From: Thermoproteota archaeon
GTDB lineage: Archaea > Korarchaeota > Korarchaeia > Korarchaeales > Korarchaeaceae
Assembly: GCA_026986575.1 (NCBI GenBank)
Contig: JALSOH010000006.1
Coordinates: forward strand, 224,001-288,000
DNA length: 64,000 nucleotides
Reading direction: 5' to 3'
The stretch's first letter is position 1. Each line of letters begins with the position of its first letter. The position numbers and the translations under genes were made by a program. Shown piece after piece: positions 35,881-40,480 of the stretch. The notes below the pieces were generated by a model. The model did not search any database. It was not told the origin of the DNA and saw only the letters and a list, made by a program, of their open reading frames with translations.

Positions 35881-36453
35881 CACGTATCTATTACCCTTCA
35901 AGTAGAATCTAAGGGGTAGGTCCGCATGCCTGCCGGCGTAATCCACCCCCACTCTCTTCGAGGCTACTATCTTCCGCTCGTCCACTCGCCCGTACTCCTC
36001 GAAATAGAGAGGCCCGTCCTCGACGCTCAGGCCGTTCATGTCTAGGGTGATGCCCAGTGCCTTGGTGAGCTTCCCAGGGCCGGAACACAGATTCCTCATA
36101 TCCTCAGTCCCCCTGTTCATCTTCATGAGATCCACGCCTTCCACGGGTTCCAGCGCCCTTATGAGGACGGCTGTGGGTTCGTTGGGTGGCGCGGTCGTCA
36201 CATTCAACATTGCGTATCCGTGGACTGGGTAGATGTAGAATAGGCCACATCCTTCGTAGAGAGGCCACATCCTTGGCGTCCTCTTCCCACCGAAACCGTG
36301 GGAGGCCCTGTCGTTCCTCCCCAGATAGGCTTCGGTCTCCACCACCACTCCTGATATCCTGTTCCCCCCGAACTCCCTGACTAGGAGCTTCCCAAGGAGA
36401 TCCCTAGCCACTACCACTGGATCCCTGCAGAAGAAATCTCTGCTCAGCCTCAT
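35869..36453 (-). CDS. mpg: DNA-3-methyladenine glycosylase (AAG/Mpg family)
   Basis: ARDLLGK, VETEAYLG..DRASH, AVLIRALEP, GPGKLTKALGI. Confidence 0.95.
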   Translation of the reverse strand: MRLSRDFFCRDPVVVARDLLGKLLVREFGGNRISGVVVETEAYLGRNDRASHGFGGKRTPRMWPLYEGCGLFYIYPVHGYAMLNVTTAPPNEPTAVLIRALEPVEGVDLMKMNRGTEDMRNLCSGPGKLTKALGITLDMNGLSVEDGPLYFEEYGRVDERKIVASKRVGVDYAGRHADLPLRFYLKGNRYVSRP

Positions 36454-36455
36454 TA

Positions 36456-37508
36456 TCAGCCCCTAGTGACGAGGTAGCTGAGGTTGAGCGTATAAGTGAG
36501 CACCATATCCCCTATTGTCGGCAGGGATATGTTGGGCCTGTAGACCTTCACGGTCTTTCCCCTGTACCTGTCACTCCCTACGGTAATGAGGAAGCGCTCT
36601 ATCATCCTGGGAAGGACATCCCTCCAAAGGTAGGCCTTATCGATCCCTAGGACATGGGAGATCTCGCTCAATGAAAGGCCTTCCTTGGATTCCCTCTGGG
36701 ACAAGGACCTGACTAGCTTTCTTCTATCGAAGGTCTCCGACCTCAGTCCCAGCAGTTCTGAGAGAAGCGAGACAACCTTCCTCTCATCTAAACCGTACAG
36801 CCTGTCTATGGCCTCCTTGGCGGTGAGAGCGTTCAGGACCTTTATCTCCACCGGAGACAGCTGATCCACGTAGAAGAGATCTCTCTTACTCAGGGGCGGG
36901 GCCACGCCTATCACTGCTAAGGCTTTAAGTGCCCTGATCATCTCCGGCAGGTGATCAAGCTGACTCAGAAAGTGGAGGGCCTTCACGAAGGACCTGTACC
37001 TCTTCTCCAGCTCCAATCCCTCTGAGATCGCTGAGAAGGCTGCAGCCAGCTCTATGCCTGAAATCGCTGGATCAGACCACACACACGGGTTTAGGTAGAA
37101 GATCCCCGTCACTATAAGGTTCTCTCTCAGGCACATTAAGGGATCCCTATAGAGGTAAAGGGCGAGAGCCGCGAGCTCCGAAGCCAACAGCAGCATCTCC
37201 CTGTCCCCTTCCAATCTCACCTTGACCGATCTGCCTAGAGTCCTCACAATAACTTCTTCCCCTCCTAGGAACTTTAGACTAACTACCCAGTCTTCAACAG
37301 GCTCTGACCGTAGGGTAACACCCAGACCGAAGCTGAACTCGGCCTTCTGATCTTGATTGGTAATTAGGATGTTCCACTCCTCACCCAACCTCTCTACCAA
37401 GATTGAGGAGAGTGGCTCTAAAGGCTCAGCTCCATCTTTGATGAATTCTTTTACTATTGTAGCTGTGATGTAAATTGTATTGTCGGCTTTTCCCCCTTTG
37501 TACTCTAT
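36456..37508 (-). CDS. Hypothetical protein with C-terminal winged helix
   Basis: GLSLSEISHVLGIDKAYLWRDVLPRMIERFLI...VKVYR; frame open from ATA 37508 (track start TTG 37400). Confidence 0.65.
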   Translation of the reverse strand: MEYKGGKADNTIYITATIVKEFIKDGAEPLEPLSSILVERLGEEWNILITNQDQKAEFSFGLGVTLRSEPVEDWVVSLKFLGGEEVIVRTLGRSVKVRLEGDREMLLLASELAALALYLYRDPLMCLRENLIVTGIFYLNPCVWSDPAISGIELAAAFSAISEGLELEKRYRSFVKALHFLSQLDHLPEMIRALKALAVIGVAPPLSKRDLFYVDQLSPVEIKVLNALTAKEAIDRLYGLDERKVVSLLSELLGLRSETFDRRKLVRSLSQRESKEGLSLSEISHVLGIDKAYLWRDVLPRMIERFLITVGSDRYRGKTVKVYRPNISLPTIGDMVLTYTLNLSYLVTRG

Positions 37509-37580
37509 GGATCATCCCTTGGAGGAACTGAGCCTTCCCCCATTAAATGTTGTGTTCAGACATTTTTTCAATAAATACTG

Positions 37581-37613
37581 AAAGAGGAGAAAACCGATAG
37601 ATAAGAAAATAAG
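37581..37613 (-). terminator. Oligo-T terminator candidate after the peptide ORF
   Basis: Minus strand CTTATTTTCTTATCTATCGGTTTTCTCCTCTTT follows the stop. Confidence 0.45.
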
Positions 37614-37624
37614 TGATGGAGAAC

Positions 37625-37675
37625 TCACTTTACAGGGGGAGCGGGCGGGTGAATTGGCCCGATCATCATATCCAT
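37625..37675 (-). CDS. Small Pro-rich peptide MDMMIGPIHPPAPPVK
   Basis: Tandem GGAGG-AA-GGAGG RBS (37690-37679); three in-frame ATGs; GC-rich patch in an AT-rich spacer; T-rich tract downstream. Confidence 0.6.
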   Translation of the reverse strand: MDMMIGPIHPPAPPVK

Positions 37676-37703
37676 CAACCTCCTTCCTCCTTTACTACTT
37701 ACG

Positions 37704-37844
37704 TAGACCAAACCTATATGGTCTATACTTGCTCATTTTATTTAGTAGACCGACAAGAGCGTGTATTGCTGGTGTAATAAGTAACATTACAACCGATCTC
37801 ATGTGAAGAAAAACTTTATTAGCCCTAACGACACTAATTAGTGT
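37704..37844. promoter_or_regulatory. Cluster of operator-like inverted repeats
   Basis: TAGACCA-N8-TGGTCTA (37704-25), extra GTAGACC (37745-51), TGTAAT-N7-ATTACA (37773-91), perfect ACACTAATTAGTGT (37831-44). Confidence 0.55.
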
Positions 37845-39420
37845 GCAACAGAAGAGACTTGAAAAAAATGAGGATCTGACTAAACTTTTCCAAGAGGAAA
37901 TCAGGAAGATCCAAAAAGAGCTAGGGATGGATCCCGTGAGGAGGATTCCCAAGAGAGTTTTACTGGCAGACGTTAAGATAGAGAAAAATCTTAGGAGTGG
38001 TGTTAAGGAGGAAGGCAGTGATCTTCTCTTAAGTGGGGACCTTTCGCCCGATAGAATTGGGATAGTCGTCAAAAGGGAAGCTTTCATCCGTTTTTTACCT
38101 CCTCTTGATTTCCCCCACATATATGATCTAGCATGGGCATACTCTAACGCTGATCCCTCGTGGTGGTCCGAGTGCTCACAGAGGGTAGGACTACCTACGG
38201 TCCCTCCTTACTACGCTCCTGAGATATTTCAGGCCTATAATATCAGAGAAAGGATTGGTGTTGTCAAGAGTGTTCTTAAGGCCATAAATTTTCTATATCT
38301 GGAGAGAGGGCGAGATATTAGCTTAGAGGACTATATACTCTTGGTTTCAATAGCTAGGAGATATCCGTCTATCAAGCTATCTAAGAGAGAACTACAGGTC
38401 CTAAGATCACTCGTCTACGTCACTCGTTCTGAAGATGCCAAGCTAGAGAATTTGGCAAAATACACAGGACTTTCTCTTGCTTCTATCTCAAGAGCTCTCA
38501 AGGATTTAATTGGAAGGAACATAGTTCATGGACCTTATACGATATTCCCTTTGAGAATGGGGCTGACCATTTATGTAACTGAATTAAGTGATCCCGCGCC
38601 TCAAGAAATAAAGTTCATAGAGAAATTCCCTTTCACTTACAATGTCTATGTAACTGAAGACAATACTTACTATATTCTATTCTTAGTACCTCTCAAGTAT
38701 GAGAGGGTATTTGCTAAATTATCAGGAGATGGGCTTCGAACAGGAAAGGAGGTTCTTTTCTCGTTTGATCTTCACTCTCTAGACGAAATACAATCCGAAG
38801 AAGTACTGGGCCTCATGGTTGACGGCTACTCCAGAGCATCGGATACCCCTCCTACTTGGAGGGAGGTTTACAGGGGAATCAAGCCCCCGATAAAACTGGA
38901 TAAAAAGGACATCCTTGCGCTCAGTGTGATCAACAGTCAGGGAAAGGCCTCTCGTTCCTACCTCAGAAGGATTGGCGTACCCAATGCAGCGGAGAGGTTC
39001 GCTAGGTACAGGAGAAACGGGCTAGTAGTTAAGGGATACTTCCCCACTGGAGTGGGTCTGGGAGAGGCGGTGCTAGCTAGATTCGATGCTCCCTATAAGG
39101 ACTTCCTGAGGATCGGGGAAGCTCTCTCCAAGGTATCTTCCCCGATAATGTTCTACACCGAAGGCTCCCTTACAGGGATAACCAGCGTCATCCTAGTTAA
39201 CGAGAAGATCTTAGGTACGCTCGTGAAGTCTCTGAGGACGCTCTTCAGCGATCAGCTGATAAAAGTCGAGCACCTATTGGTTGCTGGTCCCTCCAACTGG
39301 CAGATACCCGTTGATCTGTGGAACGAGGAGGAGCAGACATTTGAAATGGACGTGGATTCATTACTTGGAGCCTTCTCAGGCAGGTTAAAAGAAGAGGTCA
39401 GGAGGGAGCTTTTGAGGTGA
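37843..39420 (+). CDS. Large regulator-like protein with tandem Lrp/AsnC-like wHTH modules
   Basis: LSKRELQVLRSL...LENLAKYTGLSLASISRALKDL and KLDKKDILAL...RYRRNGLV, each followed by an alpha/beta domain; about 175-aa N-terminal domain. Confidence 0.7.
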   Translation: MQQKRLEKNEDLTKLFQEEIRKIQKELGMDPVRRIPKRVLLADVKIEKNLRSGVKEEGSDLLLSGDLSPDRIGIVVKREAFIRFLPPLDFPHIYDLAWAYSNADPSWWSECSQRVGLPTVPPYYAPEIFQAYNIRERIGVVKSVLKAINFLYLERGRDISLEDYILLVSIARRYPSIKLSKRELQVLRSLVYVTRSEDAKLENLAKYTGLSLASISRALKDLIGRNIVHGPYTIFPLRMGLTIYVTELSDPAPQEIKFIEKFPFTYNVYVTEDNTYYILFLVPLKYERVFAKLSGDGLRTGKEVLFSFDLHSLDEIQSEEVLGLMVDGYSRASDTPPTWREVYRGIKPPIKLDKKDILALSVINSQGKASRSYLRRIGVPNAAERFARYRRNGLVVKGYFPTGVGLGEAVLARFDAPYKDFLRIGEALSKVSSPIMFYTEGSLTGITSVILVNEKILGTLVKSLRTLFSDQLIKVEHLLVAGPSNWQIPVDLWNEEEQTFEMDVDSLLGAFSGRLKEEVRRELLR

Positions 39421-40480
39421 TCTTATTCAGAATCTCTCCTAACTGGGACAGCAGTAATTGAACGTCTTCCTCCGTGATACTGGCCATTGTAGCAGCTCTA
39501 AGTATCTTCCCCCTCAGGGGACCCTGTCCTCCCGCCACTAATATGCCCCTCTTAGCTAGCTCCCTCCTAACCACCTCTGGATCTGGGACCACGAAGGAGG
39601 TCACGGTATCAGACATCTTACCTAATTCACCGGGATGCGCGAACAGCTCCACTCCAAGTTCCCCCAATCCCTCCCTCAAGAGTTCGGCCGCCCTATGGTG
39701 CCTGAGGAACCTAGCTTCCAGCCTCTCTGAGTGTATCTCCCTGAGTGCGACCCTCAGAGCTGCGAAAAGTGGAAGTGCTGGGGTGAAGGGCGTCTGCCTG
39801 AGTTTACCCATCGCCGAGCTCCTGTACCTCGTCAGGTCGAGGTAGTAAGGGGCTCCCCTGTAGCCCTCCCAGTCCCTCACCATAACGGGTGCTAAGCCCG
39901 GTGGAGCACCTATGCACTTCTGAACTCCCCCCACTAGAGCTTTGGCCCTCCATCTATCTCCCTTCACCTCAATACCCCCTATCGAGCTCACAACGTCCAC
40001 CACGAGATCAACTCCTCTATCCGACGCTAGGTCCGCTATCAGATCCATGTCATGCTCGATACCCGTAGATGTCTCATTGTGGACTACTGCTAAGAGATCA
40101 GCACCTCTCAAGGAAGCCTCCAGCTCTTCCTGAGGGGGTGTCTTGCCCCACTCAGAACGGATCACCCTGACCTCTCTAGCGTAGAGGGATGATATCTCCG
40201 CTAACCTCTCCCCGAACTTGCCGTCGACTATAGCTACCACATTCCTGCCCCTTGAGAACCCCGCTAGGGCCGACTCGAGTCCGGCAGTGGAGGATCCGCT
40301 TATGACGATGACATCTCCCTCAGCACCGAAGAGAGGTTTAGTCCACTCGATTATCTCTTCGTACATCCTCGAGAACTCCTCTCCCCTGTGGTAGGGCATC
40401 GGCTCACTGAGCGCTCTCATAACCTCAGGACTCGGATTGACTGGTCCAGGGATGAAGCTAACCTTGGAACCATTTGCCAA
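39398..40480 (-). CDS. Class V PLP aminotransferase (serine-glyoxylate / archaeal SerC-like)
   Basis: FIPGP, VHNETSTG, VDVVSSIGG, QKCIGAPPG; start reset to TTG 40480. Confidence 0.9.
   Translation of the reverse strand: MANGSKVSFIPGPVNPSPEVMRALSEPMPYHRGEEFSRMYEEIIEWTKPLFGAEGDVIVISGSSTAGLESALAGFSRGRNVVAIVDGKFGERLAEISSLYAREVRVIRSEWGKTPPQEELEASLRGADLLAVVHNETSTGIEHDMDLIADLASDRGVDLVVDVVSSIGGIEVKGDRWRAKALVGGVQKCIGAPPGLAPVMVRDWEGYRGAPYYLDLTRYRSSAMGKLRQTPFTPALPLFAALRVALREIHSERLEARFLRHHRAAELLREGLGELGVELFAHPGELGKMSDTVTSFVVPDPEVVRRELAKRGILVAGGQGPLRGKILRAATMASITEEDVQLLLSQLGEILNKITSKAPS

Follow-up and report, generated by a model that had tools for sequence, protein, structure and literature searches.

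The stretch examined herein is a window of 64,000 nt from the genome of a Thermoproteota archaeon of the family Korarchaeaceae (GenBank assembly GCA_026986575.1, contig JALSOH010000006.1, positions 224,001 to 288,000 of the forward strand), within which a proline-rich open reading frame (ORF) of only 16 codons is located on the minus strand, between two larger and divergently oriented genes encoding proteins of 314 and 525 aa (p314 and p525, respectively). From the pattern of substitution across related loci, we conclude that this micro-ORF is a genuine protein-coding gene, maintained by purifying selection and termed the micro-gene below. In two gene arrangements, and in different genera and paralogous clades, it accompanies genes of the p525 family and not p314, and sequence comparison suggests that archaea possess a hitherto undescribed partnership of peptide and protein. 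The reading favoured here, to which a probability of approximately 45 % is assigned, is that the micro-gene stands alone and that p525 has the encoded peptide as its cognate partner.

The micro-ORF and the elements that surround it are as follows:
37625-37675, minus strand: micro-ORF, 16 codons from the first ATG
37666-37625, minus strand: conserved core of the micro-ORF, 13 codons, M-x-G-P-x-x-P-P-x-P-P-x-x followed by the stop
37679-37690, minus strand: Shine-Dalgarno (SD) tract GGAGGAAGGAGG, directly 5′ of three in-frame ATGs
37736-37745, minus strand: A/T-rich TATA-like box CTAAATAAAA, ~60 nt upstream of the micro-ORF, conserved as a block among the 14 aligned spacers
37611-37630: 6-bp inverted repeat across the micro-ORF stop codon, before the T-rich tract
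37586-37612, minus strand: T-rich tract after the micro-ORF stop, with runs of T4 only in the window copy

A preliminary description of this region, made from the window alone, had drawn attention to a hidden minus-strand ORF at 37675-37625 with five prolines and a ribosome-binding site, and this is borne out, with the frame reading MDMMIGPIHPPAPPVK and then a stop. In three related loci (L010, L011 and L013) a stop codon lies in frame immediately 5′ of the homologous ATG, and the minimal micro-ORF is therefore 13 codons long. An SD sequence is found at a proper distance before the start in both ortholog groups, as GGAGG or, in the group to which the window does not belong, as GAGGTGA at 5-8 nt before the ATG. 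The TATA-like box proposed earlier at 37745-37736 is likewise present, being identical in seven of the eight closest loci (L007 is one base off) and A-rich in the remaining six; it may represent the promoter of the micro-ORF. As to the terminator-like tract of the same description, its richness in T holds, but the window copy has T4 runs only, and a simple terminator scan of the bacterial type over 37350-37950 returned no terminators; relatives of the window micro-ORF have T5-T6 runs 11-13 nt 3′ of the stop. A bacterial-type promoter scan of the same interval gave two promoter-like sites against 1.1 expected, and since the host is an archaeon both scans are uninformative here. No Rfam family was matched in positions 36000-40000 (E-value mode), and single-sequence RNA folds of the 14 spacers gave neither a common structure nor a compensatory pattern. 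The GC content is 0.35-0.46 over 37700-38800, which covers spacer and the first two thirds of p525, compared with 0.53-0.60 in flanking genes. A look-up of sequencing runs gave four of DNA type, three of which contain the stretch wholly or in part, and no RNA run that contains it.

Conservation of the micro-ORF is without exception wherever it could be evaluated. The divergent p314/p525 pair occurs in 14 loci of the genus (tblastn), with protein identity down to ~43 % and spacers of 415-455 nt, and all 14 carry a short ORF at the matching position. Scans of genome contigs and metagenomes with a p314 alignment fetched a further 23 loci, from which 13 were dropped as duplicates (8 of 11 genome-contig and 5 of 12 metagenome loci) and three metagenome loci with less than 200 nt of upstream DNA were left out of the count; the micro-ORF is present in all three further genome-contig loci and in all four further metagenome loci that could be evaluated. 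It is thus kept, at an unchanged position, in 21 of 21 distinct evaluable loci, with a start codon, an SD sequence at 5-12 nt and an in-frame stop throughout, and with a length of 12-17 codons. Relatives that keep both large genes and lack the ORF, which were looked for specifically, did not appear.

The manner in which these sequences vary is that of a translated frame. Across 13 gapless loci (L007 was excluded for an indel), alignment columns have an average entropy of 0.54, 0.54 and 1.07 bits at codon positions 1, 2 and 3, respectively. The glycine and the five proline codons have none (0 bits) at their first two positions and 0.89-1.83 bits at the third, and such fixation combined with freedom at the third position is a signature of selection at the level of the peptide. 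The ratio of non-synonymous to synonymous change (pN/pS) in these loci is 0.39 in the micro-ORF frame versus 1.57 in the sole other open frame, and conservation extends to residues other than proline, namely the glycine and the hydrophobic positions. Standard gene calling is thus shown to overlook a conserved part of these genomes.

Association with p525 extends well beyond the orthologous loci. Distant p525 homologues (27-33 % identity), on other contigs and in other genera, still carry a divergent proline-rich micro-ORF in the absence of p314 downstream, and further types of micro-ORF lie just past the 3′ end of a p525-like gene, on the opposite strand. For counting, a micro-ORF was defined as 10-30 codons with at least four prolines, at least 25 % proline, a Pro-Pro pair and an SD-like word at -18 to -3, situated on the strand opposite the p525-like gene and no more than 450 nt from its start or stop. 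With 13 duplicate loci and four re-fetches of the window's own genome assembly (G000; 1.91 Mb, 52.9 % GC) removed, 59 p525-like tblastn rows were scored, as follows:
Both flanks readable: 40 rows, 32 with a micro-ORF
One flank readable: 18 rows, 8 with a micro-ORF
Neither flank readable: 1 row

These 40 micro-ORFs, 31 of them upstream and divergent and nine downstream and convergent, compare with 0.95 expected from the genome-wide rate of 73 per 3.82 million strand-nucleotides, and only two matches were found on the same strand as the p525-like gene. The layout of peptide gene and regulator proposed in the preliminary description is accordingly right, and stronger than had been claimed there (32 of 40 rows with both flanks readable). 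Its link to the second DNA-binding-type gene does not generalise: at the level of the whole family a tie between micro-ORF and p314 is rejected, as p525-like genes with no p314-like gene downstream keep the micro-ORF (L017 and the convergent type), and synteny with p314 is not constant.

A scan of the whole of G000 for the peptide motif with an SD sequence recovered six distinct ORFs, compared with one in a reversed-genome control. Four of the six adjoin the four loci with full-length p525-like genes, and the other two, one of which lies within an ORF of 405 aa, are probably chance matches. An initial genome-wide motif, PP-x-PP, was replaced in this exercise as it missed the paralogous peptides, and the loosest peptide pattern was not used for counts, since it gave 56 matches versus 34 in the reversed genome.

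When 42 p525-like proteins are placed in a tree, the clades and the peptide types correspond, as is expected for cognate pairs, and the convergent-type cases found in it all fall within one clade. The peptides range from 11 to 24 residues and no type lacks a Pro-Pro pair. Of the 40 micro-ORFs, 28 have a stretch of at least five T within 80 nt 3′ of the stop, versus 2.7 % of random windows, and several convergent-type micro-ORFs end in a GC hairpin with T6-T8. What lies beyond differs from case to case, with the next gene after the micro-ORF being convergent in L017, and the nine convergent-type micro-ORFs facing the 3′ end of the p525-like gene; in none of these ten does a gene follow on the strand of the micro-ORF. 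With no constant downstream gene, the family behaves as a set of self-contained micro-genes.

Six of the convergent-type micro-ORFs (L065, which is G000:C10:7150-7330, together with L054, L046, L047, L063 and L074) display a further peculiarity, in that a perfect inverted repeat of 8-11 bp, of which the SD sequence is one arm, directly precedes the start, the ORF then being followed by the GC hairpin and T6-T8. From its sequence, this repeat may possibly be a translational switch or a palindromic site for a protein.

The partner in all of these pairs is a large and uncharacterised protein, which in the window is organised thus:
37843-39420, plus strand: p525, 525 aa, GTG start at 37843
37843-38370, plus strand: N-terminal domain of p525, aa 1-176, zincin-like fold with no HExxH
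38371-39420, plus strand: tandem Lrp/AsnC-type modules of p525 (~aa 178-310 and 350-482) and Trp-rich C-terminal tail

The structure model of p525 (predicted local distance difference test, pLDDT, 88; predicted template modelling score, pTM, 0.85) consists of a 175-aa N-terminal domain followed by two fused modules, each a winged helix-turn-helix (wHTH) with a RAM domain. The 525-aa protein with two Lrp/AsnC-like wHTH modules that had been described from the sequence is thereby upheld, as is the idea of a receptor built on a fold other than the TPR fold of RRNPP receptors, the model having an α/β N-terminal domain ahead of the two wHTH and RAM pairs. Its best structural matches are NirDL and the feast/famine regulatory proteins (FFRPs), and its N-terminal domain, as modelled, resembles zincin peptidases of the M1 or thermolysin type. 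Alignment of 36 such N-terminal domains reveals a conserved [KR]-E-A-x-x helix, a D-L-A-W motif and two conserved tryptophans, including Trp108, yet no HExxH motif and no conserved histidine; catalysis is doubtful as a result. The domain is possibly a catalytically dead, peptide-binding zincin fold, which is offered as a lead only. Sequence databases add little. Pfam, NCBIfam and PADLOC gave only sub-threshold matches to HTH, CasR or Csa3-HTH for p525, with two paralogues exceeding the Pfam HTH_24 threshold and the window copy reaching no Pfam threshold; ESM Atlas had no usable match for residues 1-172; a sequence-profile search of the PDB with the N-domain alignment gave rows at chance level (E 0.7-0.9); and Pfam found nothing meaningful in the 36 N-domains.

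The reading favoured here would operate as follows. The micro-gene would be transcribed between its putative promoter and terminator elements and translated from its own strong ribosome-binding site. Its product would carry the core G-P-x-x-P-P-x-P-P, with each micro-gene of the family paired with one p525 member. The peptide would bind the neighbouring p525, for which the groove of the degenerate peptidase-like domain and the RAM pseudo-dimer are plausible sites. Binding would alter attachment of p525 to DNA at the shared intergenic region, in this way controlling the micro-gene, p525 and p314. Translation, physical binding and regulatory output, as well as action within as opposed to between cells, are what we infer from the arrangement.

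Modelling gives a cognate partnership of this kind weak support, and a number of points weigh against it. Co-folding of p525 with the 16-aa peptide gave a score of 0.52 (0.33, 0.52 and 0.81 in individual runs) against 0.02 for the best control, which was classed as 'weak support'; it gives no interface, and lies outside the calibration of the method, both because that calibration had no partner of fewer than 30 residues and because a custom alignment was used here. Of 80 solved complexes in the calibration 58 attained the mark, as did two of 110 mismatched pairs, with only seven of the 80 and both of the passing mismatches doing so at scores of 0.60 or lower. Agreement between runs is at least 79 % of contacts, with a peptide pLDDT of at least 57, and overall this modelling raises the odds of binding a little and no more. 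Pairing, moreover, is not universal, as in eight of the 40 rows with both flanks readable the rule finds no proline-rich, SD-led micro-ORF. Four of these are near misses, by too little proline (one), the lack of an SD sequence (two) or an unlisted stop-to-stop frame (L057), and the other four (L044, L049, L053 and L060) have no micro-ORF even by looser rules. The rule itself was fixed after the first cases had been seen, so that the enrichment is somewhat inflated, and the loci are kin and not independent, with perhaps eleven independent peptide types among them. Finally, the micro-ORF always lies on the strand opposite p525, which a pure protein-protein partnership does not predict; the opposite-strand arrangements represent few independent events.

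The main rival explanation, which we regard as unlikely, is that translation of the ORF matters and the peptide does not. Progress of ribosomes over the PP-x-PP codons would hinge on aIF5A or on prolyl-tRNA, and pausing near the stop would set read-through of the T-tract into p314, or the stability of a short RNA. A Pro-Pro pair in every peptide type is consistent with this, as is the situation in the window's group, where in all 14 loci p314 follows the micro-ORF in the same direction beyond a T-rich tract, where the window copy has only weak T runs, and where the micro-ORF may therefore act as a leader for p314. The inverted repeat that incorporates the SD sequence in six convergent-type copies also suggests controlled translation, and there is precedent for a proline-codon leader responsive to EF-P in mgtL of Salmonella mgtA (available text of PMC6460261). 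Set against these are the variable downstream gene (L017, and nine convergent-type copies with hairpin and T-run), the conservation of non-proline residues in peptide types that track p525 clades, and the single-sequence folds of the 14 spacers, in which no conserved alternative RNA structure was seen. A promoter of its own could, in addition, be provided to p314 by an A/T-rich element that separates it from the ORF in the closest loci.

A second possibility retains the peptide and changes its relation to p525. The micro-gene would be a target or a substrate, regulated by p525 or processed by the zincin-like domain, with a peptide that acts elsewhere as an exported signal, an inhibitor or a modified precursor. 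The TATA-like boxes stand back to back in divergent orientation and a palindrome adjoins the start of p525, which fits autoregulated and co-regulated units, and the N-terminal domain has a peptidase-like fold. Lack of an export signal is likewise compatible, given that leaderless communication peptides of eight residues without such signals are described for Firmicutes (available text of PMC10518010). Nonetheless, with neither HExxH nor a conserved histidine processing by p525 is doubtful, and 11-24 residues are too few for a leader plus core. The peptides have no signal sequence, and six scanned flanking proteins belong to no Pfam transporter, protease or modifying-enzyme family; the earlier suggestion of a modified-peptide precursor (ribosomally synthesised and post-translationally modified peptide, RiPP), or of a secreted, cell-to-cell role, thus gains no support. 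Clade-specific peptide types, for their part, argue for direct recognition by the paired protein, and a target or substrate role is held to be improbable.

That the locus is not a peptide gene at all, and instead a G-rich DNA element, with GGNGG repeats on the p525 strand, or a small RNA with a structure of its own, whose periodicity of three bases mimics proline codons, is very improbable indeed: CCN-CCN is the complement of GGNGG, so that free third positions are equally free loop positions, and pairing is possible between flanking purine or pyrimidine tracts and the regions of the SD and the ORF, but the start, SD and in-frame stop are kept in 21 loci over lengths of 12-17 codons, the glycine codon and hydrophobic residues are conserved, a stop adjoins the ATG in three loci, the same amino-acid core arises from different nucleotides in paralogous groups, and neither an Rfam match, a compensatory pattern nor a conserved fold was found.

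With regard to known systems, the peptide-receptor cassettes of the RRNPP(A) type are found in Bacillota and their phages and are a hallmark of Gram-positive bacteria. By function, these cassettes, and particularly RopB with its leaderless communication peptide, are nearest to the pair favoured here, that of the micro-gene peptide and p525. RopB reads leaderless communication peptides (PMC10518010), and genomes with many peptide-receptor pairs are known among RRNPP(A) cassettes (PMC7425212), both as given in the available text of these sources. The likeness lies in an unannotated ultra-short ORF beside the gene of a cytoplasmic HTH protein, a peptide that carries signals neither for secretion nor for processing, the presence in one genome of several paralogous pairs, and a correspondence of peptide types to receptor clades, the p525 pairs being seen to co-diversify. 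The receptor there is of the TPR type, whereas p525 has a zincin-like domain and two fused Lrp/AsnC modules, and as the receptor fold differs the system is not RRNPP(A). The hosts here are also archaeal (Korarchaeota, with relatives in Asgard archaea), the peptides are rich in proline, and binding, secretion and re-import would be putative.

Similarity to the Lrp/AsnC proteins (FFRPs) is at the level of the modelled fold, with a wHTH followed by a RAM domain (β-α-β-β-α-β) occurring twice in each chain. Canonical members have a single module of ~150 aa, form dimers or octamers and bind a free amino acid, whereas p525 has 525 aa and two modules; the fusion of these and the additional N-terminal domain of 175 aa place it outside the canonical FFRPs. 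A fused tandem form also exists in siroheme decarboxylase NirDL (PDB 4ch7/4czc), which is an enzyme. Identity of p525 to Lrp/AsnC proteins and to NirDL is only 10-20 %, and the additional N-domain and Trp-rich tail set it apart from both. Its presumed ligand would be a gene-encoded peptide, where that of Lrp/AsnC proteins is a free amino acid, and its DNA binding is putative.

The combination of a zincin peptidase domain and an HTH regulator is familiar from proteins of the ImmA/IrrE type, which similarly join a peptidase-like fold and DNA-binding modules in one regulatory protein; zincin metallopeptidases differ from the p525 N-domain in possessing the zinc-binding motif HExxH and a third ligand. 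RiPP precursors differ from the micro-peptides in that the latter have only 11-24 residues and scanned neighbours of no modifying-enzyme family in Pfam. The mgtL leader, to judge from the available text of PMC6460261, resembles the micro-ORF in being a very short ORF rich in proline codons, and the window copy likewise precedes a same-strand gene across a T-rich tract; it differs in that micro-ORFs of the p525 family have no constant downstream gene, in many cases have a terminator-like hairpin of their own, and conserve non-proline residues in a clade-specific manner. In the open-access full text of main articles, a search found no pair of proline-rich micro-gene and Lrp-type protein in archaea, no archaeal peptide-receptor cassette and no archaeal ORF that senses polyproline or aIF5A.

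The remaining features of the locus are p314 and a series of intergenic elements:
36456-37400, minus strand: p314, 314-aa orphan with a TTG start and a C-terminal winged helix at ~residues 178-300
37561-37571, minus strand: motif TTGAAAAAATG between the micro-ORF and p314, strongly conserved in 14 spacers
37815-37822, plus strand: TATA-like TTTATTAG, ~21 nt upstream of the p525 GTG start
37832-37843: perfect 12-bp palindrome CACTAATTAGTG, adjoining the p525 start codon, after the TATA-like box
37859-37870, plus strand: 12-mer TTGAAAAAAATG within the 5′ coding region of p525, inverted with respect to the motif at 37561-37571

The 314-aa orphan with a C-terminal wHTH is as it was first described. 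The micro-ORF lies 224 nt upstream of its TTG, on the same strand and with the T-rich tract in between. The frame of p314 is open to 37511, ~37 codons beyond the TTG, and is conserved as protein over this extension, which contains no ATG, GTG or TTG; L003 has an ATG where the window has ATA. Either a non-canonical start codon is used, or the protein is shorter in the window genome. No matches were obtained for p314 in Pfam, NCBIfam or PADLOC, and for its N-terminal 165 residues Foldseek and VIA gave no fold match, the lists being filled by wHTH proteins.

The motif TTGAAAAAATG, which has seven A in 10 of 14 aligned loci and a counterpart that follows the micro-ORF of a paralogous group, is from its sequence a candidate operator or promoter element. 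The 12-mer TTGAAAAAAATG is the sole exact copy in the 1.91-Mb genome and comprises codons 6-9 of p525, where GAA-AAA codons show no synonymous change. The two inverted A-run motifs, ~290 nt apart and with one A fewer in the minus copy, bracket the promoter-like regions and the micro-ORF. The spacing of TTTATTAG suggests that the p525 mRNA may be leaderless. The palindrome CACTAATTAGTG is exact in five of the eight closest loci, differs by a single change in the other three (L004, L006 and L007), and is absent from the more distant group; it is a candidate autoregulatory operator.

The wider p525 family was assessed with a profile search of 1.84 billion representatives, which returned 336 relatives at E ≤ 1 × 10−3, 71 at 1 × 10−10 and 28 at 1 × 10−30. 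Matches at E ≤ 1 × 10−8 occur in 29 of 43 genomes of the phylum examined, a close homologue derives from 'Candidatus Korarchaeota archaeon', and full-length relatives at E-values of 1 × 10−12 to 1 × 10−19 are present in 'Candidatus Asgardarchaeia' and 'Asgardarchaeum californiense'. These Asgard relatives retain the N-domain and C-terminal Trp motifs.

Paralogues in the window's own genome have a variety of neighbours. A gene of the RAMP superfamily (CRISPR type III-like; Pfam E-value 8.6 × 10−12) adjoins one p525-like paralogue at G000:C10:9092-10501 (L065:6092-7501), and near another a short ORF at G000:C6:433516-433797 appears, by eye, to be a C-terminal piece of Cas6. Orphans flanking the paralogous modules are located at G000:C6:428266-430257 (663 aa; L064), G000:C6:432056-433492 (478 aa; L064) and G000:C10:5356-7080 (574 aa; L065), with no Pfam or PADLOC match for any of the three; that of 478 aa is a distant relative of p314 (27 % identity over 199 aa). 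At G000:C4:875910-877041 there are two p525-like fragments, one with an internal TAG, which together look like a decayed paralogue, and the sole readable flank has no micro-ORF.

A much broader proposal, which we consider decidedly unlikely and put forward as speculation, is that the pairs represent an ancient form of peptide control common to Korarchaeota and Asgard archaea, in which unprocessed, proline-rich peptides would act on one-component receptors with a dead peptidase domain and double Lrp modules, with several private channels per genome, some wired to CRISPR-Cas, and possibly acting between cells. Closer to the observations, the Korarchaeota genomes examined harbour some 40 unannotated copies of a micro-gene locked to one uncharacterised protein family, and that family reaches the Asgard archaea, the closest prokaryotic relatives of eukaryotes. 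Should translation of the ORF prove to be what matters, these copies would supply a candidate polyproline- or aIF5A-sensing ORF in archaea. Under the favoured reading of a peptide that partners p525, gene-encoded peptide ligands for Lrp-type regulators become a directly testable idea.

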